IMG/VR virus record: IMGVR_UViG_2667527592_000002
Length of the DNA stretch: 64,000 bases
Reading direction: 5' to 3' (one strand)
Origin: a virus
Lineage: Duplodnaviria; Heunggongvirae; Uroviricota; Caudoviricetes
Part shown: in pieces, positions 4,715-45,552 of the stretch
Layout of the letters: each line of letters starts with the position of its first letter
Numbering within the stretch: the stretch's first letter is position 1
Notes under the pieces: generated by a model
The model's input: only the letters and a program-made list of their open reading frames with translations
Database searches by the model: none
What the model was told of the DNA's origin: nothing
Made by a program: the position numbers and the translations under genes

Positions 4715-6112
4715 TTGGAGTGTATTTTGAACAAATCAGTTACTTCTGCGCTTTCCGAGGCCGCAGATATTAACAGCGTCATTGCTCTGGTTTCTTCATT
4801 AGAGAGGAAAGAAACACGCCTGGGGCGAAGTAGCTACGTAGTCACCAGCAAAGGTGCAGAGGTAAAGACGGCTTTTAAGGTCGTTGATGCCAGCAGTCTG
4901 ATCATTTCGAACAACCTTGACGGTACGATTAACCCGGCCTTCCCGGAAGAACTCCAACCACGAGATCGTACCCGGCTATCCAGCAAACTCCAGGTTAACC
5001 GTATTGCCTCCAATTTACGCCCGGCACAATTAACGGATTCCGGTATGAGCAGCCACGGAGCGCCTATAGTTGGTCCGGACAACGTTGTTGAATCCGGCAA
5101 CGGAAGGAGTATGGGTATCTGGCGTGCCTATGAGCAAGGACAGGCGGATGAGTATCGCCAGTACCTGATCGACCATGCGAAAGAGTTTGGTCTGAATCCT
5201 GACGAAATTTCGCAAATGTCTATGCCCGTACTGGTGCGAGAAAGACTCACAGATGTAGACCGCGCTCAATTTGCCCGCGATTCAAACATTAGTGATCTGC
5301 AAGAGATGGCAGCAAGTGAAAAAGCGTATGCGGATGCGCAATTTCTCACTGAGAGTGTCATGGCGCTATTTAATCCTTCAGATGATGGAAATCTGCTGGC
5401 GCGGTCCAATGATGCGTTTATTCGTGCGTTTTTGCGCGAAATTGGCGATACAGCGACGGCAGGCTTGCTTACTGCCGATGGGCGTCCCACGAAACAGCTT
5501 ATCGATCGCATCCAGAATGCAATTTTTGCCAAAGCGTACAAGGATGAAAGGCTTGTTAGGCTGGTGTCGGAAGAGCCAGATCCGGAAATGCGTAATATCC
5601 TGACCGCATTAAATACGGCAGCCAGCGATTTTGCGCAAATGCAGTCGCTGTCTGGCGACGCTCACCATGACGCAGTAACAGGCTTAGTGGACGGTATAGA
5701 GCAGGTTAATGGCCTGGATACACAGGCGATAGCAGCACTCCAAGAAGCAATTAATCTTGTACGTGAAGCCAAAGACAACGGTCAGGCCGTTGAAGAAGTG
5801 ATCGCCCAAAGGGGGTTATTCGGCGACAGTACACCGGAAGCTGAGGCATTGGCGTTATTCATCGTAGCAAATAATCGCAGTGCGAAGCGTATGGGGGCAG
5901 CATTCAAAAAAATGGCGCAAAAAATCAACGACGAGCTGACTCATAAACAACAGGCATTGGGCGATATGTTCGGCGGTGGCGATGTTGATCTGCGTCGTAT
6001 TTTGTCTGCTGTATCTGATGAAATTGAGGGTGAATTTGGCGAAGGGAAAGGTCTGAACTTTGCTATGTTTGAAAATTCTACAGATCTAAATAATTGCCGT
6101 ACGGAAAACTAA
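4715..6112 (+). CDS. ParB/Srx-like N-terminal domain protein (DdrB position)
   Basis: motifs ...EELQPRDR... and ...VESGNGRSMGIWRA... resemble ParB box I/II (QPR and GxxRxxA); alternative start likely. Confidence 0.4.
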   Translation: MECILNKSVTSALSEAADINSVIALVSSLERKETRLGRSSYVVTSKGAEVKTAFKVVDASSLIISNNLDGTINPAFPEELQPRDRTRLSSKLQVNRIASNLRPAQLTDSGMSSHGAPIVGPDNVVESGNGRSMGIWRAYEQGQADEYRQYLIDHAKEFGLNPDEISQMSMPVLVRERLTDVDRAQFARDSNISDLQEMAASEKAYADAQFLTESVMALFNPSDDGNLLARSNDAFIRAFLREIGDTATAGLLTADGRPTKQLIDRIQNAIFAKAYKDERLVRLVSEEPDPEMRNILTALNTAASDFAQMQSLSGDAHHDAVTGLVDGIEQVNGLDTQAIAALQEAINLVREAKDNGQAVEEVIAQRGLFGDSTPEAEALALFIVANNRSAKRMGAAFKKMAQKINDELTHKQQALGDMFGGGDVDLRRILSAVSDEIEGEFGEGKGLNFAMFENSTDLNNCRTEN

Positions 6113-6176
6113 ACCAACCGCTGAAATCACATACTGATTATGCTGCCGCAAAACTGGAAACAATTTGCGGTGATTC

Positions 6177-18200: not shown

Positions 18201-19081
18201 GGACCGTGCTGGCATACCGTTTATTCCAGGGCAGGATGAAAGCCTTTAGCAATATCGATGATATTGAACGGATGTTTAATCAGGTCAAGATCGCGAAAAT
18301 TAAGGCGAAGATCGAAAAAACACGTTCTGCGCTGGTGGCCTGGCGCGATGCATTGTTTGAGCAATATAAATCACTCAGTGATGCAGATGGATGGGCGGCG
18401 CTGGAACAGTTGGCGAATAATGGGGTAGATGGAGCGAAACTCGCCATTGTCCAGGCTGATAACCCCCTGGAATCACCGGCAGCACAGTGGATTAAGGTGG
18501 GGGCTGTCATCAATGCATTTGATGAAAAACACATTAGTAAGGACGATTTTGCTGATGCTGTTTCTGTTAATCGCCTGGTAGAAATGGCTACCCGCCGCGC
18601 CCGTGAGTTGAAAGATGGCGACTATGTGAATGAGTTGCCGGATACGCTCAAATCGGCAACGTGGCAGGACTATGTATCGCTGAAAAACGGCGGGGCCACT
18701 GAATCAGAAATCGCGGAAAGGCTTGAGCAGGCTGAAAGCAAAAGAGAAGAGCAGGCGGCAGTGGCTGAAGCCAGAGCTGATGAAGCGGCAAATGATGACT
18801 ATATCATTGTGGTTAATGATAAGCCGATTCGCGCTAAGGCGCGTGTTCGCGGGCGCTGGTGGAGCGTCAGCGAGGACGTTGGCGCGGTTTATCTCATTGC
18901 CGACCAACCAGGTTCCTCGACAATAAGGAACGCCAAAGACGCGATTAAGAAGATTGGCGGGCGTTTCTGGAATTTTGAAGTGAATCCGGTCGCGGATGTG
19001 GACTTTGACCGTCCGGCGTGGATGGTATCTACGCGTTACTCGGTAGATGAACTGCGTAAAATAATCGCCGATGCGGCCTAA
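12245..19081 (+). CDS. darB: DarB-like giant antirestriction protein: N6-adenine methyltransferase + DExH/SNF2-type helicase
   Basis: 2278 aa; MTase motif I VLEPSAGTGIF and motif IV-like GNVPFG; helicase motifs GFGTGLGKTTTAL, VIADEGHNYRN, LTATPLVNS, IDQRNGRGARVG; TTG start. Confidence 0.8.
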   Translation: MDKLLHSISEASSLGELIEIVSRLHKLRAVATFGVRKADGVSIQKTRRAANNAAVNLLNSLPPGFDGAKLTDEQRQILAGYTGEGGLTDGEGSQYEYYTPQFMAEGIWDLFADYGIDGGHVLEPSAGTGIFQETKRQGMIMTSAELSPISGRINQLLHPEDDVNIGAFEALAAKDAMYDHAVGNVPFGEGRSGVAGLDPAYANEKNVGNYFVLRTIDKVKPGGLIVLVVPNGMTDGTKYKKLRDKVSRKAEFLGAHRMPSGTFSESGTDTVVDVWVLRKHPETFLEMIPDTDDATLKSANVLWDTFLKGKWFTTEGKRFVYGDMERTSFRNTLVVKKDGRVSNESMKTALSRRFDSRINWDLLGVTTQAWQGAKVGDKRLVGGIWHEFDGLKWVKDTTTKSSALDVSRYGVSTFGDLQIAFQSTNGILALSWDQISAIASDYPSVVSDEVAAMIRFAGKQREKDRERVMRGALIGQLINKALDLRNLGVNVDDKLADASRLAAAEVAKYGPPHAIKLNGLAEAGAKNWMTFTGNVKQDGSTSDLLAGRLDVTDGAAGIDFTRPEQVIAHLFSDVALNPITLGDFREAFAGELPEDDDAALEFLAKFDDIAIDGYGCLLPMDRATSGDIATKTALLVGWRDASIGEQKANFERQLAKIEEKRIFTPLNKVTVNLNARWLDRRLIKEFLAEQGYDEFKYTEPDLKVVDGILVSPDDYEGKDGVFTGYQLRTVNGKNGNEFKKANNKDGFLNQLENYLNGVKPRGQNANEYLDKIAQLEVSFNDWLRTHPQADQIARDYNDAFNGFIPFTHSDAPLGLEGLSGKRIPLTYQNEEVRRLSEDGRGIMGFGTGLGKTTTALALEAYNFETGRTKRTCIVVPKAVYQNWYHEAQSFYSADAFANMMFIGLDEVRDDSGNILTAPVLDENGEPRLDSNGQPLTRNVVKESASAVIVQRMNMIPSSNWRTVIMTKEQFASIPLREKTIEENSQQAVFNAVEMGRLDLASGKHRDAQKKNKIKDQAANTGTTKKQNIPYFEDMNFDSVIADEGHNYRNSFNAGREAGQLAYLPNPAVSKMARDMAVKAAYMMKRNNGRGVVMLTATPLVNSPIDAFNMLSTVIPQEEWMRMGIITPDDFVRVFGKTATVQVQKISGEVEEKQGLVGFQNLDGLRGIFHRWTTLKTAADVGATVKIPDIIENTLQIPMTGEQETAYEELRKRAQELSRNDELTVDENGHITNDKPDDFIFSIIRDMDKVAIDPDLYASAITFQFPVELADQVKAIADALPKVAGGKVADDVDEAEEDGAGGLVSTRTSKVVKTAFSEHPTHVEIRASIELEAEILKAIAAAGIDMQQVSHPIPPKYAALIENLREGLKNGKQIVFIDEKAQHQKLRRIIASALQMPEQEIGIINATTVSQAGGIKLKKVNKPTEPTPNKNGEYKEGAWETYYSKLAQYEDYLSAKNDAGLEGMEGIAADYNEGRTRIIICNKKAEVGINLHIGTTDIHHLTLPWTPASIDQRNGRGARVGSPQEKVNVHYYCGKGTFDDFRLDTLKRKKDWIKMVMTSDMSEIANGDADDADERAIMLAANPEERRAIMARQAQEREERLKLKAQREANNALDIYLKAANAAGKDIGMMETELKSAMEQIEYYQRNLDDLIKAGTNRNGQKYALEQLSSYRKRARVLRFAITMAKDADTIMKRSRGDVERAIKSGVLDISIDVIQNPQEYMRTDKNILLHKGSYYRAVIDDRETTAIVRVEKIDGEKAQYICRIAWLDRASRYARSPGSIVTLPFDSVIEAVTFEEGVAESRATAARGVQCHQLSTILTRDQFYDAIRNGVMNVIAGKPGNAWGGGSAIKYWAYRTDDGQIALSSTYDGVIGQQIGRASDIAPERWIYPDGNDEALKREVAKIQASDNPLNIVDGEGFLQALYGYDYIQGMQAWGAQATMDDVAQEFENWMAGRGLSGRSLNKVTSEDILSLFRKPSGEGLESFWRTVLAYRLFQGRMKAFSNIDDIERMFNQVKIAKIKAKIEKTRSALVAWRDALFEQYKSLSDADGWAALEQLANNGVDGAKLAIVQADNPLESPAAQWIKVGAVINAFDEKHISKDDFADAVSVNRLVEMATRRARELKDGDYVNELPDTLKSATWQDYVSLKNGGATESEIAERLEQAESKREEQAAVAEARADEAANDDYIIVVNDKPIRAKARVRGRWWSVSEDVGAVYLIADQPGSSTIRNAKDAIKKIGGRFWNFEVNPVADVDFDRPAWMVSTRYSVDELRKIIADAA

Positions 19082-26651: not shown

Positions 26652-27044
26652 ATGGAACAAATCAGCAGCGCAGAAATTGCGGATATCATGATCAGGGCTG
26701 ACTGCTATCTGACAGTCACTGAAATTACCACTCTCGCCAAAGAAAAATACCCTCATCTCCATGTTTCACGAGTAAGTGTAACTAACATCATTCGTCATTT
26801 TGTTCGTTCAAGCAGGGCAATCTGTGAGCTGGATGATCGTGTGTATCCACGAAAATACTGGCTACATGGTCTGAACGGATATCAGTTCAAGGTGCGCGGG
26901 CGCACGCCTGAATACGGTAGCTTACTGGTTAAAAACTGTAGCAGGAAATCAGTCGAACAGGCGCGAAAAGAGCAACGAGAGCTGGTGGACATGGCGAATA
27001 AGCTGTGGAATGCCGCCGTTAAAAAGCGTGGTGTTGCTTTATGA
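26652..27044 (+). CDS. hypothetical protein (late-activator position upstream of terminase genes)
   Basis: 130 aa; position only. Confidence 0.3.
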   Translation: MEQISSAEIADIMIRADCYLTVTEITTLAKEKYPHLHVSRVSVTNIIRHFVRSSRAICELDDRVYPRKYWLHGLNGYQFKVRGRTPEYGSLLVKNCSRKSVEQARKEQRELVDMANKLWNAAVKKRGVAL

Positions 27045-28405
27045 GTCTGGTTAATTGGGAGGAGCACCGCGCCCGCTTTATAGCGTTGCGTGAAGAAAAA
27101 GGGATCACTGTAAAGGAATACTGTGAGGAGCATGGCCTTAGCTTCAATACAGCCAGAAAGCATCTCAATATGAAAAAAAATGAGGTGCGGTCGCAGGTAA
27201 AGACAACAAAAAAAAGCACCAAATCACCTGAAAAAAAACGGGCGGGAAGAGCAACAAAAAAGCTGGAAGAGGGTGCAGAAAAAACAAAATTTACAGAAAT
27301 TGACAATTCGCAGGGTGCAGGTTCTTTCCGAAGTATGCCAAGAAAGAAAACTTCGGATCATGAAAGTAATTCCAATAATAACAATGAGATAAAAGAATCT
27401 GTCAGGAGATCATTGCGCGAAAAAATGGCGAAAATGATCCCCGAAGAAGATAAAAGCGCCCCAAAAATTGAGGGATCTTCAGCAATGATCCCTGGCGGTG
27501 CTGTGCAACGTGCCACATTGCCCACTACGAATGTGGCTCGCGACATGATGAAGAACGGCGCAGAAGAACACCTGCGGTTAGCAATTCAAATGGCGCAAGA
27601 GCGCGCACTTCAGTATCAAAGCATTGTTGATCAGGAGGCCGAACGTCTACAGGCGGAAATAGACGCCTTGGGCGATAAAGAGCCAGAAGGAATGCACCCT
27701 GGGCAGCGCCTTCTCGGTCTAATCAGTGACGCGGCCTACTACATGAATGATTTTATCAGTAGGTTGGCAGCTATATATCAGTCCGAACAAAAGCTGCGAC
27801 AGGGGGATGAAAAGCTTCGTCAGAGCGCTCGCCAGCAAGCATTCAAAGAGGCTGAGGCCAGAGAAAAACTCGAATTAGCACGCCTACAGGCCGAACAGCG
27901 TGGCAAAGAGATTGAATATCGCATTGGCGCTGACGCACGCGCTGCCAGAGTTATCGCCGCCGCTATACGTATGCGTGAGCGCGAGGAACTGGATGATATC
28001 GGTGTTGCTGAATACATCGAGCGCCAGGGGGTCAGCGTCCCGGCTATCCTCGCGGCGCGCGCGGCGAAAGCTATCACTCTTCTCGAACCACCTGTTTCTG
28101 ACGTCAATGATGTTGATGATGAACAGCTGGACAAAGAGGCAAGGGAGTTTGCAACGCTTCAGGCTAACCATCCGCAATGGCTGGCAGAGCGCCGGGCGGA
28201 TGTGGCAACCATTGTTGAAGAATTGGGGTGCGGAGATTACGACCGCAATGGCGAGCGTAAAGCTGGAGAATTCGAGGCCAGCGACGAAGAGCTGGATATT
28301 GACCCTTCGGCAACGGCTGAAATTTACGGTGATTATGATGCATCTGATGCAGGGTATGACGCCGGAGATGATGATATCGCGATAGAACCGCCGGAGGATG
28401 ATTAA
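27041..28405 (+). CDS. terminase small subunit-like (PacA-like)
   Basis: 454 aa, N-terminal HTH-like region, basic linker, acidic C-terminus; directly upstream of large terminase. Confidence 0.45.
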   Translation: MSLVNWEEHRARFIALREEKGITVKEYCEEHGLSFNTARKHLNMKKNEVRSQVKTTKKSTKSPEKKRAGRATKKLEEGAEKTKFTEIDNSQGAGSFRSMPRKKTSDHESNSNNNNEIKESVRRSLREKMAKMIPEEDKSAPKIEGSSAMIPGGAVQRATLPTTNVARDMMKNGAEEHLRLAIQMAQERALQYQSIVDQEAERLQAEIDALGDKEPEGMHPGQRLLGLISDAAYYMNDFISRLAAIYQSEQKLRQGDEKLRQSARQQAFKEAEAREKLELARLQAEQRGKEIEYRIGADARAARVIAAAIRMREREELDDIGVAEYIERQGVSVPAILAARAAKAITLLEPPVSDVNDVDDEQLDKEAREFATLQANHPQWLAERRADVATIVEELGCGDYDRNGERKAGEFEASDEELDIDPSATAEIYGDYDASDAGYDAGDDDIAIEPPEDD

Positions 28406-29913
28406 TGGCTGGCGGGCGCAAGATTAAATGCGTCACCAGCGATCCACGCTGGCGCGATATGGTAATCAAATACCGCTACAACTTTACCCAGGCTGTTGTC
28501 GATATTTTTGGGATGTTCCCCTCCCACCAGCAGCAGCAGATCATTCAGTCAGTGCAGGAAACGGGGAGTAGGACGACCGTCACGTCCGGACACGGAACGG
28601 GGAAGTCGTCCCTTACCGCGATGTTGCTGTTGATTTTTATGATCCTGTTCCCCGATGCCCGTGTCATCATTGTTGCTAACAAGATAGGCCAGGTAAAAAC
28701 AGGCGTATTCAAATACGTTAAACAGTATTGGGCGAATGCAGTTAAGCGTCATGGGTGGTTGCAGACCTATTTTGTCCTCTCTGACACCATGTTTTATGAG
28801 CGCTCCCGTAAGGGGATTTGGGAAGTTCTCTGCAAAGGTTATCGACTCGGCAACGAAGAAGCGCTGGCGGGGGAACACGCGGCACATTTGCTTCTAATTC
28901 TGGACGAAGCATCTGGTATATCTGATAAGGCGATCGGCGTAATGACCGGTGCTCTTACTGAAGAAGATAACCGGATGTTGATGCTATCCCAGCCAACAAG
29001 GCCAAGTGGTTATTTCTACGATTCGCACCATTCTCAAGCAAAAACCCCAGACAACCCGAAAGGGATCTGGACAGCAATTGTTCTTAACTCGGAAGAATCA
29101 CCGTTCGTCACACCACAATTCATCAAGCAGAAGCTTCTGGAATATGGCGGGCGCGATTCTATTGAGTACATGGTCAAGGTGCTTGGTCAGTTCCCACGAG
29201 AAATTAACGGCTATTTGCTTGGTCGTGATGAATGCGATCGCGCTGCTCGCCGCAAGGTGTTGTTGGAGAAAAACTGGGGATGGGTGGCAACGGCTGACGT
29301 TGGTAATGGGCGAGATAAGTCGGTCCTCAACATCTGCAAAGTATCTGGTCACAGGGATAAGCGGCGCGTTGTTAACTTTAAGGTAATGGAGATGCCTGGC
29401 ACTATGGACCCATTGGCCTTTGCTGACTTCATATATAACGAATGTACGCCGGAAAAATACCCGAATATAACAATCGCGGTTGATGCTGATGGTTTTGGTT
29501 CTGATACGTGTGCGCAGTTGGTGCGTCGTGGTGCGAACCCGGTACGTATTCGGTGGGGAAAACCCATGTTTGCGAACAAAGACAGGGAGCGATTTGTTAA
29601 TCAGCGTGCCTACGCAAATATTATGGCGCGTGATGCCATAAAGTCAGGGCGTATGCGGATAGACAGTGACCCTAAAACGGCAGAGCAAGCGTCAAAAATC
29701 CCCTTTTTACTGAATGAAGAAGGGAAAATGGCGATGATGCGCAAAGAGCACATGCGGCAAAAGCTAAACATCAAATCGCCTGACCGATGGGATACCTACT
29801 GCTTCACTATGCTGGTGGACTATGTGCCTGCTAATGAAGATATTGGTGCCGAAATGGCAACTTTCCGAGATCAGGTTCTGGCGGATATCGAAATGCCGGA
29901 TCTGGATATATAA
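28405..29913 (+). CDS. terminase large subunit (PacB-like ATPase)
   Basis: Walker A TSGHGTGKSS, Walker B LLLILDEASG; 502 aa. Confidence 0.75.
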   Translation: MAGGRKIKCVTSDPRWRDMVIKYRYNFTQAVVDIFGMFPSHQQQQIIQSVQETGSRTTVTSGHGTGKSSLTAMLLLIFMILFPDARVIIVANKIGQVKTGVFKYVKQYWANAVKRHGWLQTYFVLSDTMFYERSRKGIWEVLCKGYRLGNEEALAGEHAAHLLLILDEASGISDKAIGVMTGALTEEDNRMLMLSQPTRPSGYFYDSHHSQAKTPDNPKGIWTAIVLNSEESPFVTPQFIKQKLLEYGGRDSIEYMVKVLGQFPREINGYLLGRDECDRAARRKVLLEKNWGWVATADVGNGRDKSVLNICKVSGHRDKRRVVNFKVMEMPGTMDPLAFADFIYNECTPEKYPNITIAVDADGFGSDTCAQLVRRGANPVRIRWGKPMFANKDRERFVNQRAYANIMARDAIKSGRMRIDSDPKTAEQASKIPFLLNEEGKMAMMRKEHMRQKLNIKSPDRWDTYCFTMLVDYVPANEDIGAEMATFRDQVLADIEMPDLDI

Positions 29914-29940: not shown

Positions 29941-30978
29941 TTACCAGAGCTTCGCGGCGTACTGCGTTTGGGGGAATGTGTATCCGTAACGTTCTTCGAT
30001 TGCTTTGCCGTATTTTTTACGAGCTTCATTCAGTTTAATGCCGGTCAGGTCGTCTCCAGAGGCCATCATTACCTCTAACAATTCCAGATCCATTTTATCC
30101 AGCCTTGCCATTGCTTCACGTGATGTACGTATCTTACGCTCAATGATATGGCGAATAGCCGGATCGGCATCCTCCAGCATCTTAGCGGATTTCTGCTTAA
30201 GGCTTTCATTGCGAATATCGATGTTCCTTAAGATGTACGACTTCGCAACGTAGCTTGGCTGGTGTTTTTCCAGGTCACGAACACGATATAAGTTAAAATC
30301 GCCGAGAAGGCTGCAAGGTACCGATTCGACGCCAGAATAAATTGTAATGCTCCGGCGTTCACCAACATTATTGACAACGGGGATCGTTGTCTTCGGTAGT
30401 CTTGCGAAAACCAATGCGCCATGTGCGCCAACTCTAAAGCGAGAAAGGGCATTGCTGCCTTCGATGTTTGTTGTCAGCACAACATCTGTATATGCCTCTT
30501 TACGCGCCCGGTAGATCTCGCCTTCAGGCTCAGCTTCAAAGAAGCGCTGTTCTTCTTCAAGAGCGCCTACGATTTGAGAAAAAACCCTATTTTTCAGGCT
30601 TTTCTTTATGATTTTGTCGTATTTTTTGAGCAATTGTTCACGTGTAAATGTACGTGTTGTTGTAGCGCTTTGCACAACAACATGCGTGCTTTGATTGGTG
30701 TCCTCAATGATGAATGGGATCGGAGAATATACAGACTCAACAATGTTCGACGCTTTGCCGTCGGCATCGCGGCACATGTCAACGAAGGCTTTCCATTCAG
30801 CAAGACATTTTTCAGCTTCTTCTAATATGTTTTGGTCATGCGTTAATGCAACATGGCGGAATTCCTCGCCAGCATAACTGGTATCATGGAAAACAGAGTT
30901 TGCGACCACCAGCTCTTTCCACCGTTCAGCGGTTTGCAGGAACCGTTTGTACTCTTTCTCGATCGACTTCTTACTCAT
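29941..30978 (-). CDS. hypothetical protein (occupies P1 c1-repressor position; unverified)
   Basis: 345 aa ORF with bidirectional hairpin after stop; motif site 19 nt upstream of start. Confidence 0.4.
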   Translation of the reverse strand: MSKKSIEKEYKRFLQTAERWKELVVANSVFHDTSYAGEEFRHVALTHDQNILEEAEKCLAEWKAFVDMCRDADGKASNIVESVYSPIPFIIEDTNQSTHVVVQSATTTRTFTREQLLKKYDKIIKKSLKNRVFSQIVGALEEEQRFFEAEPEGEIYRARKEAYTDVVLTTNIEGSNALSRFRVGAHGALVFARLPKTTIPVVNNVGERRSITIYSGVESVPCSLLGDFNLYRVRDLEKHQPSYVAKSYILRNIDIRNESLKQKSAKMLEDADPAIRHIIERKIRTSREAMARLDKMDLELLEVMMASGDDLTGIKLNEARKKYGKAIEERYGYTFPQTQYAAKLW

Positions 30979-31187: not shown

Positions 31188-31221
31188 ATAACTTTAAATA
31201 ATTGGCATTATTTAAAGTTAG
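31188..31221. other. lox-like recombination site (13-8-13)
   Basis: ATAACTTTAAATA-ATTGGCAT-TATTTAAAGTTAG; arms inverted 12/13; first 7 nt identical to loxP arm ATAACTT; about 150 bp upstream of cre. Confidence 0.75.
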
Positions 31222-31372
31222 GCTATAATCATGTGTAGATGAACAGTGTTGACATCACTGAAAATACGTGCCTCGAATCAAAGGCTTGTATTTTGAAAAT
31301 TAACTTATAGCTACCCTGTCATTTTTATATTTTTCGCGTAGCGTCATCTGTATATAGAGGTGTAATAGTTTC

Positions 31373-32401
31373 ATGGGTGAATTAATTATCTCTGGCAGTT
31401 CCGGTGGTTTTCTGCGCAACATTGGCAAAGAGTACCAGGAAGCCGCAGAAAACTTTATGCGGTTCATGAATGACCAGGGGGCTTATGCGCCGAATACTCT
31501 GCGCGACCTCCGGTTGGTGTTTCATTCCTGGGCGCGCTGGTGTCACGCTCGCCAGCTTGCCTGGTTTCCGATCTCACCAGAAATGGCCCGCGAGTATTTT
31601 CTTCAGCTGCATGATGCCGATCTGGCTTCGACCACCATTGATAAGCACTACGCCATGCTGAACATGCTGCTTTCGCATTGTGGCCTTCCGCCACTTTCGG
31701 ATGATAAAAGTGTTTCTCTGGCTATGCGGCGCATCCGGCGCGAAGCAGCAACTGAAAAAGGCGAACGAACAGGCCAGGCTATACCGCTGCGGTGGGACGA
31801 TCTGAAACTGCTCGACGTCCTGTTGTCCAGGTCAGAACGGCTGGTGGACCTGCGCAACCGGGCTTTTCTCTTTGTTGCATACAATACGCTGATGCGTATG
31901 TCGGAAATCTCGCGTATTCGTGTAGGAGATCTGGACCAGACAGGTGACACTGTCACGCTACATATTTCACACACGAAGACAATAACGACCGCCGCCGGGC
32001 TTGATAAGGTGCTTTCCCGTCGCACTACCGCTGTGCTGAATGACTGGCTGGATGTTTCCGGGCTTCGCGAACATCCTGACGCAGTGCTGTTCCCGCCGAT
32101 ACACCGTAGCAATAAGGCCAGGATCACGACAACGCCCCTTACTGCACCTGCAATGGAGAAAATATTCAGCGACGCCTGGGTGTTGCTGAATAAAAGAGAT
32201 GCTACGCCAAACAAAGGAAGATACCGGACGTGGACCGGGCATAGTGCACGCGTCGGGGCCGCTATTGATATGGCTGAAAAGCAGGTGTCTATGGTGGAGA
32301 TCATGCAGGAAGGAACCTGGAAGAAACCGGAAACACTTATGCGGTATCTTCGCCGTGGCGGCGTGTCTGTGGGGGCTAATAGCCGCCTGATGGATTCGTA
32401 A
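31373..32401 (+). CDS. cre: Cre-like tyrosine recombinase
   Basis: colinear with P1 Cre as recalled: ...SLAMRRIRRE..., ...AYNTLMRMSEISRIRV..., ...GHSARVGAAIDMA..., ...EIMQEGTWKKPETLMRYLR (catalytic R-H-R-W-Y positions conserved). Confidence 0.92.
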   Translation: MGELIISGSSGGFLRNIGKEYQEAAENFMRFMNDQGAYAPNTLRDLRLVFHSWARWCHARQLAWFPISPEMAREYFLQLHDADLASTTIDKHYAMLNMLLSHCGLPPLSDDKSVSLAMRRIRREAATEKGERTGQAIPLRWDDLKLLDVLLSRSERLVDLRNRAFLFVAYNTLMRMSEISRIRVGDLDQTGDTVTLHISHTKTITTAAGLDKVLSRRTTAVLNDWLDVSGLREHPDAVLFPPIHRSNKARITTTPLTAPAMEKIFSDAWVLLNKRDATPNKGRYRTWTGHSARVGAAIDMAEKQVSMVEIMQEGTWKKPETLMRYLRRGGVSVGANSRLMDS

Positions 32402-32819: not shown

Positions 32820-33292
32820 AAACTTATTACCCATCTCTGAATTGTTACCCGTCTTCCTATCCAGAATTATCCGGGAAGCTGTTAGCTCTATTAGCTAAAG
32901 CACCTACGGAATGGTTTAAGCCAGTCGTTATCAATCCACACTTCCTGGATTACGGATCTGTTCGCACTCGTAACGAACTCAAAAACCTACTGGCGCATGG
33001 ATTCATTCGACACCGTGCCGGGAAAGGCTATCAGTTAGCGATTGCGCCAGAAGAGGCCATGCGGCTATTCGCATATCGTGACAGCCAGACAAAAGCTCGG
33101 GTAATAGCTCAAATACTTCATAACGGCAGCACCTATGCCCGCCAGTTTGGCGGCGACACGTCGCAGTTCTTGCGGGCGGTGCGATCGCTGGAGGAGCAAG
33201 GAGTTATTGAAAGTTCCTGTCTTCCTGTTCCTACCGTTCCACATATCAAACGTCGGGTTTACACCTTCACGCAGAGAGCTAAAAAACAATGA
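32816..33292 (+). CDS. hypothetical protein
   Basis: 158 aa ORF, overlapping stop/start. Confidence 0.3.
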   Translation: MKTYYPSLNCYPSSYPELSGKLLALLAKAPTEWFKPVVINPHFLDYGSVRTRNELKNLLAHGFIRHRAGKGYQLAIAPEEAMRLFAYRDSQTKARVIAQILHNGSTYARQFGGDTSQFLRAVRSLEEQGVIESSCLPVPTVPHIKRRVYTFTQRAKKQ

Positions 33293-33783
33293 TTTACGTA
33301 AAAGTGAAACGCCTACATCCGGCAGCAAAACTTCCAGCTTATGCCACCTCCGGATCGGCGGCGATGGATTTTGAGGCTGTTGAAATAACACCATGCGTCG
33401 ATAGCAATGGTGAAATTTCCTCAAGCTGGTGGGTGCATACCGGACTGGCTATGGAGATCCCGCCCGGCTGGTGTCTGAAACTCTATCCGCGATCCGGATT
33501 GGGCTGCAAAAAACATACTCGCCTGGCTAACTGCGTAGGAATTATCGACTCCGATTATCGCGGTGAAATCATGGCAAAACTGATTACTGATCCCGGCGGG
33601 GAAGGCGTTTGTCTCAAGCCTGGAATGGCTGTCATGCAAGGCATTTTTGAGCGTGTTGAACAAGTCTCACTAGTCGAGGTTGAGGAACTCAACGAAACGG
33701 AACGTGGTGCTGGTGGCTTTGGTAGCACATCGGAAGGCCACTTTGAAATTAAGCGTTCACCGCTTCAGTACGAAAAGTTATAA
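33289..33783 (+). CDS. dut: dUTPase
   Basis: motifs ...GIIDSDYRGE... and C-terminal ...RGAGGFGSTS... Confidence 0.85.
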   Translation: MIYVKVKRLHPAAKLPAYATSGSAAMDFEAVEITPCVDSNGEISSSWWVHTGLAMEIPPGWCLKLYPRSGLGCKKHTRLANCVGIIDSDYRGEIMAKLITDPGGEGVCLKPGMAVMQGIFERVEQVSLVEVEELNETERGAGGFGSTSEGHFEIKRSPLQYEKL

Positions 33784-33797
33784 GCAGAGAAAAGACT

Positions 33798-34475
33798 ATG
33801 AATAACATGACAACGAAAGAGCTTTTGACGGCACTTCCAAAATACAAAAGCCATAAAACAGTTCGTGCCTCAAAAATCAAAGATATCGAAATTATCGCCC
33901 TAATGGATGTGGTCCTTCTTTGCAACATCGAAGTCGTTGAGCCAGAAGGGGTAAAAGTCCATGTTGATAAAATGTTTTTGCAAAAACACCGACCAGAAAT
34001 TGGCGGATATCTGGTCGCTTATGAGGACGGATCTCTGTCCTATTCACCAGAAAAAACATTTGAAGAAGGCTTTAGTCGGACTAACGACTTCTTCGAAAAT
34101 GGGGCATTGCTCAGCATTGAAGGTCACAATGGGGTGACATTCATTACAGCCAGGGACGTAACTATTTCTGCTGGCGGTATCGCTACTCTACAAGAAGAAA
34201 TCGACCTTGAAGCAGCCGACTTTTCTGACGCGCTGATGTGGCTGAAGGATGGCAAGAAAGTTGCTCGACGCGGGTGGAACGGCGAAAACCAATTCTGCTG
34301 GCTGGTTCCTGAAGGACAGTACCCGGCACGAATGGAAGCCATTAAGGGATATTTCCCCGGCGACCTCGTTCCGTATGGTGCTTATTTCGCCTTAAAAAAT
34401 GCACAAGGTGTAGTTGTTCCGTGGGTTCCTTCTGTAGGCGACTTACTGGCATGTGACTGGTTTGTAGTGGAGTAA
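33798..34475 (+). CDS. two-domain protein with C-terminal DUF2829 (Tad2-type)-like domain
   Basis: ...DALMWLKDGKKVARRGWNGENQFCWLVPEG...VVPWVPSVGDLLACDWFVVE. Confidence 0.5.
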   Translation: MNNMTTKELLTALPKYKSHKTVRASKIKDIEIIALMDVVLLCNIEVVEPEGVKVHVDKMFLQKHRPEIGGYLVAYEDGSLSYSPEKTFEEGFSRTNDFFENGALLSIEGHNGVTFITARDVTISAGGIATLQEEIDLEAADFSDALMWLKDGKKVARRGWNGENQFCWLVPEGQYPARMEAIKGYFPGDLVPYGAYFALKNAQGVVVPWVPSVGDLLACDWFVVE

Positions 34476-34481
34476 TTTGAC

Positions 34482-35288
34482 ATGGAAAGCACCAAAACAA
34501 TTCAATACCGCTTGCGTAATGGCCTGCTGGTGGCTGTTAACGCCGACATGTCACTGCCGTTTGACACGATTGAACGCACTATCATGACGTATCTCGGCTT
34601 TAATGAAGAACTGAATGAAGAGCATGGCGTAGCTATATGGAGTGATGCAGACAGCGGCGTTCGTCGTTACATCACCGCCAGGGGCAAAGACTACTCTCTG
34701 GAAGAACTGTTTGCCCTTGCGCAGTCTTTCGAATGTGTAGCATTAGACCTGTTTAATGATCCTGCTATAGCGCAACGACTTATACGCGAGCTTGGGCTAT
34801 CCGTTACACCAATTATCTTTAAAAATGGCAGCCTGACTGGCACATGGCGCGTAGAACGCATCTCAAACTACCTTCCATATAACCGACAGTTAAATGGAGT
34901 AATCTCCGGCGTTAATCAGCCCGTAGCGTGTGAAAATGTAAATCTGGTTGTCGCTGTTTTGGCAACCGCATGTCGTGTTATCGGTTTGGCTAAACAGGCA
35001 TTTATTCATTTCCCAAATGGTGCAGAAGGTAGCGCAGAGATTATCGCGTGTGATTTCGAATTTACCTGGATGCTACGCGAATATCTGGACCAAACAGTGT
35101 TCCGCGCCGAAGAACTGGATATGTATATCACGTCAACGATTCCTGATGATGTGCGTGCTGAAGCAATCGCCACAGCAAGGGCCAAATGCCGTGCGGCGAT
35201 TGCAGAACAGGCCAAAGAAGAACAGTCCGATGAAGTCGCGGCAGATGTGGAGGCAGAGGTAGCGGAGGATGCTGATGCTGACGCCTAA
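34482..35288 (+). CDS. hypothetical protein with acidic C-terminal tail
   Basis: 268 aa; C-terminus ...EEQSDEVAADVEAEVAEDADADA. Confidence 0.35.
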   Translation: MESTKTIQYRLRNGLLVAVNADMSLPFDTIERTIMTYLGFNEELNEEHGVAIWSDADSGVRRYITARGKDYSLEELFALAQSFECVALDLFNDPAIAQRLIRELGLSVTPIIFKNGSLTGTWRVERISNYLPYNRQLNGVISGVNQPVACENVNLVVAVLATACRVIGLAKQAFIHFPNGAEGSAEIIACDFEFTWMLREYLDQTVFRAEELDMYITSTIPDDVRAEAIATARAKCRAAIAEQAKEEQSDEVAADVEAEVAEDADADA

Positions 35289-36375
35289 AAACATCACCGA
35301 ATTACCAGAGTGGAGAGAGCTGGTAAGCAAATATAGCCATGACTGGGCATTAGCAGCAGAAGAGTTGATGGGTGTTAAGTTAACCCACCAGCAAAAGCTA
35401 ATTGTTGAGGCGATTCAACAAAAAGGTTCAGCAGTCAGCGTCACCACTCCTGAAGGGATAGGCCAAAAGACGGTTATCGCTATAATTAGTATTCTTTATA
35501 CAATCCTGATGCCTGAGTCTAAAACGGTTATTGTTTCCCCAAAGTTCTATAATTGTCGCAGGCAAGTTATCCAATACATAAGTACGTATTGGGATAGAGT
35601 CAGTAACAGAATCCCATTGCTGGGAGAATATTTTAAAGTCGATGGAAACGGCATCAATCATCGTTACCGGGAATATTGGGGCTGCGAAATTAAGCCATAT
35701 CACCGAAATTATGAGGAAGGTTTCGGTGGATATTATGCTGAACATCTTTTAATCATTGTTACGGAGGCGGCTCTTGCTGGCGATCGGCTATTCAGCATGT
35801 TAAGAGCATCGTTAGTAAGTGACGATTCACGTATACTTTTAATGTCCGCTCCTTCAGAGGAGGAGCATGGACACTTTTACGATTCCCATCATGGTCGTGC
35901 TAAATCAGAAGAAAATCCATGTGGTATTTATACAGCCATCAAGCTGAACGCAGAAGATACCCCCATTATTTCTCAAGGTTATCTTGATAACATTGCAGAA
36001 ATATATGGTGGTAAAAACAGCGATTACTACCGTCGTATGGTTCTTGGTGAGTTTCCTGGTATTAGGGGGGCTGTTCTTGAATCAGATATGCCGAAGACAA
36101 TGCGCTTTTCGATGCCTGATGGTAGTGAATGGATAATGCCATTACGAGTGATAGCCCGGCATCATGCACAGCACCACGCCAAAAAACATGGCGTTACAAC
36201 ATTGGAGTGGTTGAAATCGCACACCATTCCACTCTTCACTGCAGATCACAATGCTATCGTTGAGTGGGCAAAAACAATTCCGTGGGAGAATGTTGCTGAA
36301 TACGCCCACATGCTAAAACCGCCGAAAGACAGGCAAGAAATTAGCTGGCTGACAGCAGAAAAAATCATTGAGTGA
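35269..36375 (+). CDS. terminase-large-subunit-like ATPase-domain paralogue, degenerate Walker motifs
   Basis: shares ...HFYDSHHG.AK...NP.GI.TAI.LN.E..P...QG.L...AEIYGG... with PacB-like 28405..29913; Walker A TPEGIGQKT, Walker B LLIIVTEAA (DE replaced by TE). Confidence 0.5.
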   Translation: MLMLTPKNITELPEWRELVSKYSHDWALAAEELMGVKLTHQQKLIVEAIQQKGSAVSVTTPEGIGQKTVIAIISILYTILMPESKTVIVSPKFYNCRRQVIQYISTYWDRVSNRIPLLGEYFKVDGNGINHRYREYWGCEIKPYHRNYEEGFGGYYAEHLLIIVTEAALAGDRLFSMLRASLVSDDSRILLMSAPSEEEHGHFYDSHHGRAKSEENPCGIYTAIKLNAEDTPIISQGYLDNIAEIYGGKNSDYYRRMVLGEFPGIRGAVLESDMPKTMRFSMPDGSEWIMPLRVIARHHAQHHAKKHGVTTLEWLKSHTIPLFTADHNAIVEWAKTIPWENVAEYAHMLKPPKDRQEISWLTAEKIIE

Positions 36376-36381
36376 TAGTAG

Positions 36382-36412
36382 GAAGCCCGCCTGGTTGAGC
36401 GGGCTTCTTTTC
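36382..36412. terminator. bidirectional hairpin terminator
   Basis: gaagcccgc-ctggttga-gcgggcttc + ttttc between convergent genes. Confidence 0.55.
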
Positions 36413-36791
36413 AAATATTGGAACCATATAGTTCACGTAGTTTTTCCGCTACTGAAGATACGGGGATTTCACCAGTTGCAGCCCCCACCGCAAGTTCCAC
36501 CAGCACGGGAGAATCATATACCTGTATACCGTTACGGCGTAGAAATAGCAGCGCACTGTTTAGCGCGGTACGCTTATTGGCATCATTGAATATATGCCCT
36601 CTCGCAGTAGCCACCAGGTAGGTTGCGGAGACTTCGAAAAGGTCGGTGATCTCTTCGTAGGCAACTCTGGCCTGAACTCTCCCGATAATGGCCTCTGCCC
36701 TACCCGGATCTGACATTCCCGGCAGGCCGCCGTAGCGGCTTATATTCGCATCATGAAGCGCAATAAGTTCTTCCGGTGATATATGCCTCAT
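36411..36791 (-). CDS. doc: Doc toxin (Fic-fold kinase)
   Basis: [40 protein letters not shown]... near-identical to P1 Doc as recalled. Confidence 0.95.
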
Positions 36792-37018
36792 TATCGGTTA
36801 ACCAGTTCCTTGTTGGTGGAGTCCAGGGTGTCAAACAGGGATGCAAATTCAGCATCCAGCGCCGCCTTTTTGTAGGCTTCGAAAGTAGCCTTGCTGACAA
36901 TTACTGCTGGTTCACGGCCTCTGCGGGTGATTTCAACCTCTTCCCCGGCTTCAACATTGTTGAGCAATTCAGAAAGGTTGCCGCGCGCGGTACGGAAGTT
37001 AATGGACTGCATAAACAC
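36791..37018 (-). CDS. phd: Phd antitoxin
   Basis: ...[49 protein letters not shown]...; likely true start at ATG 37012; stop overlaps doc start. Confidence 0.95.
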
Positions 37019-37084
37019 CTCGTGTACTCGTTATGTGTACACAATCATAAACTTCACAGGCATAAAGCACCAGCACTTTGCAGC

Positions 37085-37474
37085 TTAAATGACCGGACAA
37101 TCATCAAACTCCCCACTTCGGGCATCATTGATGACATGAGTGATCACACCAAAAACAGCATTACTACCCGTGTAACCATCGTCATCTACTGGTAACGCCT
37201 CTTTCTTCCCGGTGCTTAAATCCTCCAGGTGCTGGCGCGGATACTTTCGGTATCTCTTTATGCGATATTCACCCTCCATAGCGCACACAAGCAGCGAACC
37301 ATCAACTGGAGTAAGCGAAGAATCAACCACCAGCAAAGCACCCTGCAATATTCCCTCACGGTGATGGCTGTCTGCCGCCCGCATGAAGTATGTCGCTGAT
37401 GGATGCCTGATTAGTTGCTGATCAAGAGAAATTCTGCTTTCAACATAGTCCGCCGCAGGAGAAGGGAAGCCCAT
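37085..37474 (-). CDS. humD: HumD (UmuD'-like SOS mutagenesis subunit homologue)
   Basis: MGFPSPAADYVESRISLDQQLIRHPSATYFMRA... colinear with UmuD from GFPSPAADY onward. Confidence 0.85.
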   Translation of the reverse strand: MGFPSPAADYVESRISLDQQLIRHPSATYFMRAADSHHREGILQGALLVVDSSLTPVDGSLLVCAMEGEYRIKRYRKYPRQHLEDLSTGKKEALPVDDDGYTGSNAVFGVITHVINDARSGEFDDCPVI

Positions 37475-37561
37475 AGCGTTTTCACCTCAATAATACTGTT
37501 CATTTATACAGTATACATTAAAGAGACACCTTTGGTGCAAACGCGTTATCGCCGGTCATCA

Positions 37562-41403: not shown

Positions 41404-41883
41404 TTACTCACCTTCTTTGATGCGAATGCCTGCGGCGCGTGGCACATTAACTTCCACGATGCGCACTGTTGGTTTGTACATCTCAATCGCTGTCAGCCAG
41501 TCAGCGCCGGTCATACGCTTTTCTGCATCGCCATTAGTCCACTTAACCGGTACACCAATAGCCTTCATCGCAATTTCTATTTCCCCGGCAATGGCGCTTT
41601 TCCCGCAACCAGTAAAACCAGATACAACGACAAGAACTTCGCCTTTTGCTGGTTTTATTTCCCGCGCCTCCACCTCTGCAATTCGGCACATAGCATCGAT
41701 ATTTGTGTCTTCCTGGCGTTTAACTTCATCCAATAATGCCAACGCGATATCTGGCGAAAAGTGCTTCATAAAATCGTTAAGCGCATTAATTCGCTGATCG
41801 AAAGGCATTACAGGCGCTTCACCAGCAATTTTTGTTTTTTCAGCAATTTCACGAAGCTTTTGATAGTCAATTTTGTTTGTCAT
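41404..41883 (-). CDS. P-loop protein
   Basis: ...VVVSGFTGCGKSAIAGE... Walker A-like. Confidence 0.35.
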   Translation of the reverse strand: MTNKIDYQKLREIAEKTKIAGEAPVMPFDQRINALNDFMKHFSPDIALALLDEVKRQEDTNIDAMCRIAEVEAREIKPAKGEVLVVVSGFTGCGKSAIAGEIEIAMKAIGVPVKWTNGDAEKRMTGADWLTAIEMYKPTVRIVEVNVPRAAGIRIKEGE

Positions 41884-42758
41884 GCCACTACCTCTTCGAA
41901 TTTCAACTCCAATTGGTCACCCCAGATTTCACATGATTCGGAACACGAACCAGTATCAAACCGCTTGGCCTGCACCATCGCCTGATACAAATTTCTGTAG
42001 TCGCTGTCGGCATACATTCTGGCAATCCCGTCAAGCGTCAGGTGACCACGGTACATAACGTCTTTACCTGTTCTGCGATGACCATCCCTGACGTGTTTGC
42101 CTGTAACCAGTTCATTAAAAACCCGCATCAGACCTGGTTCGTCTTTACATGCAAGCCCCAGCTTTTGCGTTGACTTTTTGATGCAAAAAACACAGTTCCC
42201 GAGGTGCTCCGGGATTTGCAAATCAAAAGGTTGTTTTCGCCACCACCGGATAACATCCGACTTATCAAAATCTGACAGCTCGGCAAGATACCGGACGCCC
42301 GGTTTCGGTTTCAGCCTACGGGGTTCGTCCGCACGAATACCCAGCCATGTGATGTAATTCCCTCGCCCAAAATGGTCATCGCAATATTTCGTGAAAGGGG
42401 TGAGTTTTAGCCTGTCAGTACAGAACGCGCCGCCGATGTATGGCGTACCGTACTTTTTAACCATGTCCATAAACGGTTTAAGCACCGGCATTCGCGTCTG
42501 AATATCCTTTGGTTCCCATTCCGTATAACCATTTGGCTGCCCAAGTTCTGGATTTATATCGACCTGCAACACCGTTAGCGGTACATTCCAGAACTTCACA
42601 ACCTCACGAATAAAGCGATACGTCAGAGGATGTTCACAGCCGGTATCCATAAAAATGAAATGGACGCTAGCGCCAGCTTTTCGCTGTGCTTCCATCAGAT
42701 GAACGAGATAAGCCGATGTTCGTCCACCTGAAAAGCTGACGACTTGATGCATACTCAC
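41880..42758 (-). CDS. pap: PAPS-reductase-like / PP-loop ATP pyrophosphatase family (Pap-like)
   Basis: N-terminal VVSFSGGRTSAYL PP-loop motif; 292 aa; near phd-doc as in P1. Confidence 0.75.
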   Translation of the reverse strand: MSMHQVVSFSGGRTSAYLVHLMEAQRKAGASVHFIFMDTGCEHPLTYRFIREVVKFWNVPLTVLQVDINPELGQPNGYTEWEPKDIQTRMPVLKPFMDMVKKYGTPYIGGAFCTDRLKLTPFTKYCDDHFGRGNYITWLGIRADEPRRLKPKPGVRYLAELSDFDKSDVIRWWRKQPFDLQIPEHLGNCVFCIKKSTQKLGLACKDEPGLMRVFNELVTGKHVRDGHRRTGKDVMYRGHLTLDGIARMYADSDYRNLYQAMVQAKRFDTGSCSESCEIWGDQLELKFEEVVA

Positions 42759-43458: not shown

Positions 43459-44454
43459 TCAGTTATTGAACGTGATCACTCCGCGCTCGATGGCGAAGTC
43501 GAAAAGCTGGTTAGCTGCTACGTAAAGGCGTATGCCATGTGCTTTTTCCCATGCCCGGACATCGTTTTCTGCGCTTCTGGCGCAGTCATCGCAAAGAGGA
43601 ACAGCCCAGCGGTCGTGTTCGTTTAACGAGCGGGCGCGGTACATGAATGGGTGATTAACCTTGCCGCCGCAGCCTACACACGGGCGAGACACCACAAACC
43701 GGAGATAAGCCGGGCTTTTTCCGAGTAAGGTTTTTGGACGGCGCATATATAGGAGGCCAGAATCTTCATCGACGGACAGATTGACGATCTGCTCTGCGGA
43801 AATATCCACCAGCTCGCGGGTACTATGCTCCCAGGTAATATCCGACTCTTTCAGAGTGCCGGTAGGGATTTCAGTTTTTGGCTGACAAAATGCAATGCGA
43901 CCAGCTTCATCAGGCAGTTCGTCTTTAAGATTCCGGCGAATGGCCCAAAAGGTGAGTTCAACCATGCTCAGATCGCGATCTGGCGGAAGTTTTAACTCGC
44001 TGGCAGCCCAGTTCATAATCCAGTTGGCGCGATTCAGTGACAGTTGGTCTTCCAGCTTGCCGTATCCCTTCATCATGTATTCCGCATCATGCTTCCAGCA
44101 CAGGCGAACGGCAGAACCGTTATAGAAATGGGTGGTTAACTGGTGGCTGCAATCGCGCTTATCATGCGCCTGGCAATCGTGAATGTTGGTGCTAACCCAG
44201 TGAACGAGAGAATCCTCACCACCTAACGCGTTAAATACGCGCTCACTTTGAAAAAAGGGTGCCAGTGACTGGTTGGTAACCAGTGAATAATTCAGGTCAA
44301 CGACACCATCAGGGGTGTTTTCAGCCTGTTCACGCGGCAATGGGGATATAAGAAAACGACGTCCTGCGCCGATGTAATTGCTGGTGGGCTTATCTACAGG
44401 AAAGACAGCCACACCAGTTTCATTTACGACATATGGGGTGATTATTGCACTCAT
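43459..44454 (-). CDS. hypothetical protein with C-terminal Cys-rich motif
   Basis: ...RPCVGCGGKVNHPFMY...AVPLCDDCARS... Confidence 0.35.
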   Translation of the reverse strand: MSAIITPYVVNETGVAVFPVDKPTSNYIGAGRRFLISPLPREQAENTPDGVVDLNYSLVTNQSLAPFFQSERVFNALGGEDSLVHWVSTNIHDCQAHDKRDCSHQLTTHFYNGSAVRLCWKHDAEYMMKGYGKLEDQLSLNRANWIMNWAASELKLPPDRDLSMVELTFWAIRRNLKDELPDEAGRIAFCQPKTEIPTGTLKESDITWEHSTRELVDISAEQIVNLSVDEDSGLLYMRRPKTLLGKSPAYLRFVVSRPCVGCGGKVNHPFMYRARSLNEHDRWAVPLCDDCARSAENDVRAWEKAHGIRLYVAANQLFDFAIERGVITFNN

Positions 44455-44551: not shown

Positions 44552-45232
44552 TCAGACTTTAAGCTGCCCTCCCTTCACATGCATTAGCGTCAGATTTCCG
44601 CAAAAAACCGCGCCCGTGTCTATGTAGTGCTGATTCCAGTATGCTTTTGGTCTTCGTACCGGTGTGTGCCCAAAGATAAAGCGATCTGCGCCTGTGATTT
44701 CTCCACCAATGCCATCTATCGAATCACCGACGCGACTGCGCGACCAGACAACATCAAAAAGCGACACATCCTTACCGAACTGGTACTCTCCACCTGGATA
44801 GTCGGCATGGGCTATAACGATAGTTTCATGCCCGGTGTTCAACTCAATGATATAGGGCAGACGTCTTACCAGCTCCACCAGCGCCCTGGCTAATATTTCC
44901 CGATCAGCGTCCAGCATGAAGAACCATTGACCACCATTCATTAGCCAGTTATTCACGTTGCCTGCGGGACTTAACGCATCGATCATTAATCGCTCGTGGT
45001 TTCCCATAACCGACCGAAACCAGGGCATCTGCAATAGCTCCAGGCATTCAACATTTTCGGTGCCGCGATCGATAAGGTCGCCAACCGATATCAGTAAATC
45101 CTGCGCCGGGTCAAAATCCACACGATGGAGTTCGGACATCAGTCTGGTGTAGCAACCATGCAGATCACCAACAACCCATATGTTTCTGTAGCCAGAACCA
45201 TCAATACGGCTATATAAATTCACTTCATGCAT
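44552..45232 (-). CDS. ppp: Ser/Thr protein phosphatase (lambda PPase family; Ppp-like)
   Basis: ...[13 protein letters not shown]..., ...[11 protein letters not shown]..., ...GNHE...; ORF track start 45274, likely true start at internal Met. Confidence 0.85.
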
Positions 45233-45240
45233 AGCCTGGA

Positions 45241-45552
45241 TCATGCGGCAACCTTCTCCCGCAGCCAGATACAAACTGGACCATCTTCAGTGTCATGGAT
45301 AGAGCCAACAAACCAGCCTTCACCCTCTGGTCGCTCCGGTTCCCAGGCGGCAATATCGGGTCCATCTGCGTCCAGATCAAAATCATCTTCATCCATACTG
45401 CGAATAGTCCACTGAAGATTATTTTCCTTCATCCAGGCGTCAAATTCCTCAGTGGAAATATATTCACGACCTGCGCAAAACTTCTCATACTCCGGATGTG
45501 TCCAGCAGCCATATTCATCACGTTCTACCGGCATTTTTTTAATGATGCTCAC
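45241..45552 (-). CDS. hypothetical protein
   Basis: 103 aa ORF. Confidence 0.3.

Follow-up and report, generated by a model that had tools for sequence, protein, structure and literature searches.

A PacB-related pseudo-terminase of P1/D6-like phage-plasmids with a degenerate ATPase domain and a small early phage domain

The satellite or phage proteins SaPI Ppi and PICI Rpp bind terminase subunits and interfere with packaging; they are non-enzymatic binders whose target is the small terminase, and they do not have the terminase fold of a paralogue. A terminase paralogue is described from T4, where vs.8 is an ATPase-only paralogue of the terminase gp17, and EcAvs2 was activated on co-expression with it (Evans et al. 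2026, PMC13601566). Here we describe the open reading frame (ORF) 35269-36375 (+), which is named X throughout, of a 64 kb stretch of viral DNA (IMG/VR record IMGVR_UViG_2667527592_000002; in the following, the window). The window is a P1/D6-like plasmid-phage of E. coli, a P1-like plasmid-prophage which is closest to coliphage D6. T4 vs.8 is the nearest described counterpart of X. Like vs.8, X is the second copy of a terminase ATPase domain in its phage, has no nuclease and is restricted to a lineage. Unlike X, vs.8 retains both Walker motifs in intact form and is described without an added C-terminal domain; X in turn derives from the PacB lineage and not from gp17, its motifs are degenerate, and an extra domain is fused to it. 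T4-like phages are absent among the matches listed for a tblastn search (40 of 58 records, E<=1e-5). Unlike SaPI Ppi and PICI Rpp, X is phage-borne and varies independently of PacA and PacB. No paper on X, on the isaA-X cassette or on the C-terminal domain was found, and literature searches on pseudo-ATPases, paralogues or decoys of terminase in phage-plasmids gave nothing directly relevant apart from T4 vs.8.

The X reading frame is intact and encodes 368 amino acids (aa). In a BLASTP comparison with the PacB-like large terminase of the same window (28405-29913, +, 502 aa, with intact GTGKS and LDEAS motifs and a nuclease half) 92 of 269 positions are identical (34%, E=1e-52), and residues 7-273 of X align with residues 8-275 of PacB, which correspond to the ATPase domain. 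The identity to the PacB proteins of P1 (gp110) and P7 is 36%. X matches phrog_5902 over its full length (E=1e-132) and phrog_2, 'terminase large subunit', with E=1.9e-10. PHROG 5902, like PHROG 17928 mentioned below, is an uncharacterised sequence cluster and not a functional family, and phrog_5902 also catches real PacB proteins via the ATPase domain. X and PacB further share lineage-specific blocks, namely the QQ motif, FYDSHH, NPxG..TAI.LN.E.SP and YGG. The initial annotation had claimed clear similarity to the PacB-like protein across the ATPase domain and had named a mere coincidence of motifs as what would refute it; the alignment covers the whole ATPase domain and shows that the homology is real.

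The fold points in the same direction. The AlphaFold (AF2) model of X, which was built from an alignment of 84 sequences, has a predicted local distance difference test score (pLDDT) of 89.6 and a predicted template modelling score (pTM) of 0.78. Its best Foldseek matches in the PDB are terminase ATPase domains, with P74-26 (4znj, E=1.8e-8) followed by Sf6, T4, HK97 and D6E. The matches to these large terminase subunits (TerL) span E=1e-8 to 1e-6, and the Avs3-bound PhiV-1 terminase is also among the best matches. A sequence search of the PDB with the profile of the X family gave zero matches. X arose from the PacB lineage of P1-like phages and retained the terminase ATPase fold, and we delimit an N-terminal PacB-type terminase ATPase-fold domain at residues ~1-264 (35269-36060, +) which is catalytically degenerate.

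The Walker A position of X reads GIGQKT (residues 63-68; 35455-35472, +) where PacB has GTGKSS, and the Walker B position reads VTEAA (residues 164-168; 35758-35772, +) within IIVTEAA, where PacB has LDEAS within LILDEAS. Both motifs had already been noticed in the initial annotation, and the degeneracy turned out to extend to the whole family. The homologues of X are 364-366 aa long and 99, 88, 81, 65, 49 and 38% identical to it, and in every one of them the catalytic residues are gone. The remnants of Walker A in these relatives are GIGHKS, GIGRPQ, GVGTTT or GIGETS, those of Walker B are VMDAA, IVDSA, VLNAS or VINSA. The Lys and Ser of Walker A, which are invariant in PacB, are kept in none of eight members of the X family; the invariant Asp of Walker B is kept in none of nine, the Glu in three of nine. 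As a reference set we used 67 positions of the ATPase domain which are at least 92% invariant across 36 proteins of the PacB family, and 24 of these are fully conserved in the X family. Lost are the Ser/Thr/Lys/Ser of Walker A, the Asp and Glu of Walker B along with the Ser-Gly behind them, and three residues on the flanks of the S-x-P motif III (Q, T and R). The blocks FYDSHH, NPxG and YGG are kept, as are the glycines of the P-loop and the Q-motif. X is thus of the same lineage and fold as PacB, with 34-36% identity across the ATPase domain, but unlike PacB it has no Walker A Lys/Ser, no Walker B Asp and mostly no Glu, an altered motif III flank and no nuclease. It is also an optional gene that stands apart from pacA and the late operon, and its ratio of nonsynonymous to synonymous substitution rates (dN/dS) is several-fold higher.

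PacB is the longer protein by 134 aa, close to the ~130 aa noted before, and no segment of X aligns in BLASTP with the nuclease half of PacB. Of the five features that define a large terminase, X has the TerL-type ASCE ATPase fold with sequence homology; it lacks the other four, which are a catalytic Walker A, a Walker B of the hhhhDE form, an RNase-H-like nuclease, and adjacency to pacA with universal presence. X should not be annotated as large terminase. It is labelled 'terminase large subunit' in MH422554 and hypothetical in RefSeq. On the other hand X shows neither a broken frame nor neutral evolution as a pseudogene would. The frame is intact in all seven alleles compared, some pairs of which are past synonymous saturation, and dN/dS amounts to 0.14-0.49 for the whole gene and, in most cases, to 0.08-0.3 for the C-terminal domain. 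Because the ORF stays intact past synonymous saturation, X is to be regarded as a selectively maintained pseudoenzyme and not as a pseudogene. Since the catalytic residues of the ATPase and the nuclease are lost, and since X lies outside the packaging unit, the protein is predicted to be unable to hydrolyse ATP in the manner of a terminase, to translocate DNA or to cut pac, and to act by binding.

The initial annotation had described X as without an obvious nuclease domain. That a nuclease is absent proved correct, but it was not simply deleted; its position is taken by a widespread small domain of about 100 aa (residues ~262-368; 36052-36372, +) which consists of a beta-hairpin and helices. 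We performed a full scan with residues 262-368 as single-sequence query (HMMER phmmer, E<=1e-3) and obtained 188 representative proteins, most of which are about 100 aa long and contain nothing but this domain. Their consensus is ...MPDGS.W.VP..IA..RA..YA...GGD...SL..DT.PLF..D..EI.DWA.NNM.W.DV... and X belongs to this unnamed family of small phage domains (a ~95-aa module): a hidden Markov model made from the family alignment matches X with E=2.7e-29, and the C-terminal domain matches positions 404-486 of phrog_17928 with E=7e-14. No Pfam family and no fold match among solved structures was found for it, nor was any link in sequence or fold to a known replisome-binding module. We also considered whether the C-terminus is a shrunken remnant of the nuclease, against which MAFFT did place some of the C-terminal residues. 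This was rejected, as the domain has its own family, which consists mostly of free-standing proteins, and a different predicted fold.

Elsewhere the domain forms the C-terminal module of DUF1351/coiled-coil proteins (phrog_17928), for example ORF36 of Xanthomonas phage CP2, which lies directly upstream of the genes for Erf, an exonuclease, an endonuclease and SSB. A free gene for the domain is located between MT-A70 and RecA genes, near PolB, and others are found inside runs of small early ORFs. Fusions in which its partner is either a Lar domain (restriction alleviation) or N4-gp49/Sf6-gp66 occur as well, and the domain is also found in phages with unrelated terminases. The origin of the combination seen in X is indicated by two syntenic loci downstream of ban. 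The P1-like Cronobacter phage JK004 has five small ORFs there, among them the domain as a free gene (gene_35, 98 aa, 31646-31942), two genes past a DnaB-type helicase. Its syntenic sister L005, with flanking genes that are 69-88% identical, holds a fused X at the same locus (6001-7098), whose residues 267-364 are 74.5% identical to gene_35. There is also a fusion in reverse order, in which the small domain precedes the pseudo-terminase (L012, 6001-8384, a contig of GCA_024867085.4); it is truncated by a 548-aa ORF on the minus strand which by eye resembles a Tn3-family transposase. Because of the free gene in JK004, the fused X of L005 at the syntenic locus and the existence of the reverse-order fusion, X is a pacB-derived ATPase-fold domain that was fused to a pre-existing small early gene. 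Near the reverse-order fusion in L012 we also noted a gene for a RecA-dependent, Ref-like nuclease.

The distribution of X is patchy. D6 has the gene order isaA-pdcA-doc at this position, and X is absent; the region 34400-37500 of the window matches D6 by 94.5% across 60% of its length, and phd-doc-humD matches P1 and P7 by 96%. The P1 variants MH422554 (15219-17100) and MH445380 have the order ssb-isaA-X-hxr, where P1 (NC_005856, 21569-24132) has isaA-IS1-isaB. The IS1 region of laboratory P1 may have displaced or replaced X. A relationship of isaB to an X gene truncated by IS1 was rejected, as there is no similarity. The X locus is the region of difference RD-2 of P1-like plasmids (PMC6906374), and isaA is non-essential in P1 (PMC10695390). 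In relatives from Klebsiella, Enterobacter and Raoultella the operon terminates at isaA without X. One Raoultella contig (L017, 5997-10744) carries an arsenic-resistance cluster of ArsD, ArsA and ArsC directly after cre-dut-isaA in the position of X, and because of this replacement the end of the operon looks like an insertion hotspot for cargo. Among 740 PLSDB plasmids with a PacB-type match, 163 (~22%) have a full-length X-type match, and a match at the DNA level was obtained for 90 of the 117 plasmids with a D6-type pacB. IsaA is no obligate partner of X, since it is found without X in D6, Klebsiella, Enterobacter and Raoultella, and X is found without IsaA after ban. The idea that isaA-X is a degenerate duplicate of pacA-pacB was likewise dropped, as IsaA has no similarity to PacA.

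Moreover, X does not follow the terminase genes of its own element. Three plasmids share PacA and PacB with the window at 99-100% identity (dS ~0.02), yet their X is only 82% and 65% identical (dS 0.22-0.80), and a plasmid with a PacA of 74% identity carries an X that is 95% identical to one of these diverged alleles. The alleles of X are thus exchanged and diverge independently of those of PacA and PacB. Between the window allele and three diverged plasmid alleles dN/dS of X is 0.33-0.46, in comparison to 0-0.14 for pacB, 0.12-0.21 for pacA, 0.05-0.14 for cre and c1 and 0.08-0.18 for isaA. With 0.38-0.52 in five of six allele pairs, the Tad2-like gene next to isaA comes close to X; the sixth, a near-identical pair, has 0.02. 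Among the E. coli alleles the divergence is mosaic, with a dS of ~0.1 in the C-terminal and up to 1.5 in the N-terminal domain. An unconstrained or hypervariable helix patch was recognized at residues ~93-122 (35545-35634, +), for which the window and the CP088573 allele differ by 28.8 nonsynonymous and 6.2 synonymous differences over 30 codons; the proportion of nonsynonymous differences (pN) is 0.40 and that of synonymous differences (pS) 0.35, while the homologous patch in real PacB has a pN of 0.01 at a pS of 0.33. In the AF2 model the patch comprises the helices 93-114 and 116-121. Taken together, X is an optional, mobile and fast-evolving gene.

X lies 5.4 kb away from pacAB, in the cre operon and outside the lpa-pacA-pacB late unit. 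The PacA-like terminase partner (27041-28405, +, 454 aa), annotated as 'DNA pacase A subunit' in near-identical plasmids and with helix-turn-helix matches, precedes the PacB-like gene, after which lies the gene for a C1-type repressor of the D6/P7-C1-like type (29941-30978, -, 345 aa). It is followed by a cre-like recombinase gene (31373-32401, +), two small ORFs, a dUTPase gene (dut, 33289-33783, +), a Tad2-like gene of the DUF2829 family two genes upstream of X (33798-34475, +, 225 aa; PF11195, E=1.6e-22, residues 141-224) and an isaA-like gene (34482-35288, +, 268 aa; 48% identity to P1 IsaA with E=4e-90; phrog_2326). The site TTGGCA-16-TATAAT upstream of cre (31202-31229, +; 11 of 12 positions) is the sole strong sigma-70-like match on the plus strand ahead of X, and because of this cre-orf-orf-dut-Tad2-like-isaA-X likely form a seven-gene operon with X as last gene. 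Between X and the convergent doc/phd genes (36411-37018) a stem-loop AAGCCCGC-CTGGTTGA-GCGGGCTT is followed by a T-run (36383-36411; terminator-like match at 36389-36404) and is a probable terminator. The stop codon of isaA (35286-35288) overlaps the start of X, and as the start lies inside the end of isaA this suggests that the two genes may be translationally coupled. A GGAGG at 35264-35268 abuts the first ATG and lies 6 nt ahead of the second one at 35275, and RefSeq gives a 366-aa form in near-identical plasmids. Because of this spacing and the RefSeq annotation the true start is probably 35275, so that the ORF 35269-36375 of the initial annotation stands except for its first codons.

The three contexts of X correspond to three C1-repressed early units of P1. 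The ban operon of P1 is under C1 control. The annotation of P1 further lists an operator Ossb before ssb and an operator Oc1e that 'may control' cre.

The initial annotation had offered three candidate functions for X, namely a packaging decoy, a regulator or an anti-defence protein that mimics terminase. A dedicated regulator of the phage's pacase is made less likely, and a conflict-type or adaptor role more likely, by the fast evolution of X, its independence from PacA and PacB and its accessory context. The reading which we place first, though as a tentative one, is that X would take part in conflicts of the phage with its host or with other phages, as a mimic of terminase or an adaptor that has no catalytic activity. 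It is favoured because the distribution is patchy and alleles are exchanged independently of the backbone, because the rate of X matches that of the Tad2-like gene of the same operon and not that of core genes, and because the C-terminal domain is small, mostly free-standing, at home among early genes and elsewhere fused to Lar. It is also favoured because the ATPase domain of terminase is the target which Avs1-3 and Upx sense, Avs2 and Avs3 touch the active site and the bound ATP, and T4 vs.8, itself a copy of this domain, triggers EcAvs2 (PMC13601566). On this reading X would be produced early, ahead of the late pacase. Its inert imitation of the PacB ATPase domain, linked to a small domain that binds a partner, would keep a factor occupied which recognises terminases by their ATPase fold, rather than tune the packaging of its own phage. 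The loss of the nucleotide site would remove those ATP-dependent contacts which the terminase sensors Avs2 and Avs3 use. Rather improbable in our estimate is the specific form of an early, ATP-blind decoy which would bind Avs1-3 or Upx without oligomerisation or firing, so that the late PacB escapes detection.

Several points weigh against a function in conflict. PADLOC gave no match for X, its library being one of defence proteins and not of anti-defence proteins, and no anti-defence protein that mimics a terminase is known in the literature; anti-Avs activity is known from a ligase and from a DprA-like protein. A mimic that binds Avs might trigger the sensor instead of blocking it. The high dN/dS and the unconstrained helix can also reflect relaxed constraint after the loss of catalysis, with no arms race. 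Early, C1-controlled expression of X is deduced from the P1 annotation, and the P1-type C1 operator (ATTGCTCTAATAAATTT, up to 3 mismatches) has no match in the whole window, so that the element must use another operator sequence than the P1 type. Finally, the C-terminal domain adjoins DnaB, RecA, PolB, Erf, exonuclease and SSB genes, a neighbourhood that would fit a role in DNA metabolism just as well.

That neighbourhood is the basis of a second, possible but somewhat doubtful explanation, in which the C-terminal domain would dock on the replication or recombination machinery of phage or host and the dead terminase fold would serve as a platform for binding DNA or protein, for example by linking concatemer formation to later packaging or by shielding DNA ends. 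It agrees with the position of X or the free domain directly after the DnaB-type helicase gene (ban) in L005 and JK004, with X after ssb-isaA in the P1 variants, and with the domain between MT-A70 and RecA genes near PolB and, in the DUF1351/coiled-coil fusion of phage CP2, just upstream of Erf, exonuclease and SSB. However, X is dispensable and patchy, its N-terminal domain, which includes the unconstrained helix, has a rate of evolution several-fold above that of core genes, and the small domain matches no known replisome-binding module in sequence or fold; early clusters also mix genes of DNA metabolism with anti-defence genes, which makes such a neighbourhood weak evidence. A regulator or poison of the own pacase, which would bind PacA or co-assemble with PacB and thereby damp or time pac cleavage and packaging, possibly protecting the plasmid prophage from leaky pacase, is what one might expect from a PacB paralogue that keeps the N-terminal helices (W15, Y22, Q41/Q42), the lid region and the FYDSHH, NPxG and YGG blocks and that lies in D6-like elements among the plasmid-maintenance genes cre and phd/doc. 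We consider it unlikely, as X alleles of 65-82% identity occur with 99-100% identical PacA and PacB and one of 95% with a PacA of 74%, as P1, D6 and ~78% of the P1-like plasmids have the same pacase without X, and as X stands outside the lpa-pacA-pacB late unit; the C-terminal domain, which occurs in phages with unrelated terminases, would also remain unexplained. The lost catalytic motifs and a dN/dS above that of neighbouring core genes could finally suggest a functionless, decaying partial duplicate of pacB. This is very hard to reconcile with an ORF that remains intact at 364-368 aa when synonymous sites are saturated, with a dN/dS that stays under 0.5 for the whole gene and is mostly 0.08-0.3 for the C-terminal domain, with a confident and well packed model, with a Shine-Dalgarno sequence and the suggested coupling to isaA, and with a two-domain combination that arose or persists in each of three genomic contexts and with the domains in either order.

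Some further genes of the window deserve mention. The Tad2-like gene (33798-34475) is a candidate for an anti-Thoeris sponge in a P1/D6-like phage-plasmid, and its product has an additional N-terminal part of ~140 aa ahead of the DUF2829 domain. The IsaA-like protein ends with a strongly acidic tail (residues 245-268, EEQSDEVAADVEAEVAEDADADA); the IsaA family is confined to P1-like elements of Enterobacterales and gave no match in Pfam or the PDB, including a sequence search of the latter. A 2278-aa ORF (12245-19081, +) with N6 DNA methylase and SNF2/ResIII helicase domains resembles P1 DarB, a virion antirestriction protein. The ORFs 41880-42758 (-), 43459-44454 (-) and 44552-45274 (-) encode a PAPS-reductase domain, a DUF968 protein and a lambda-type metallophosphoesterase, respectively. 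The DUF968 protein is of the same family as that encoded by a gene of related plasmids with the RefSeq label 'HNH endonuclease' and is possibly the counterpart of P1 pdcB.

No protein of tailed phages is more conserved than the large terminase, which is also a main target of pattern-recognition immunity in bacteria (Avs1-3, Upx). As a catalytically dead and rapidly diversifying copy of its ATPase domain, X is a test case for whether phages employ mimics of their own conserved proteins, be it for blinding sensors, for interfering with rival phages or for coupling packaging proteins to DNA metabolism. The automatic annotation as 'terminase large subunit' is misleading and could confuse the terminase-based typing of P1-like plasmids. 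New is also the unnamed domain of ~100 aa which is common in early regions of phages and for which the fusion to a terminase fold is the first functional link. If the decoy model were true, X would be the first anti-defence protein that acts by mimicry of a conserved viral pathogen-associated molecular pattern (PAMP), and the small domain would define a new and widespread family of early phage effector domains.

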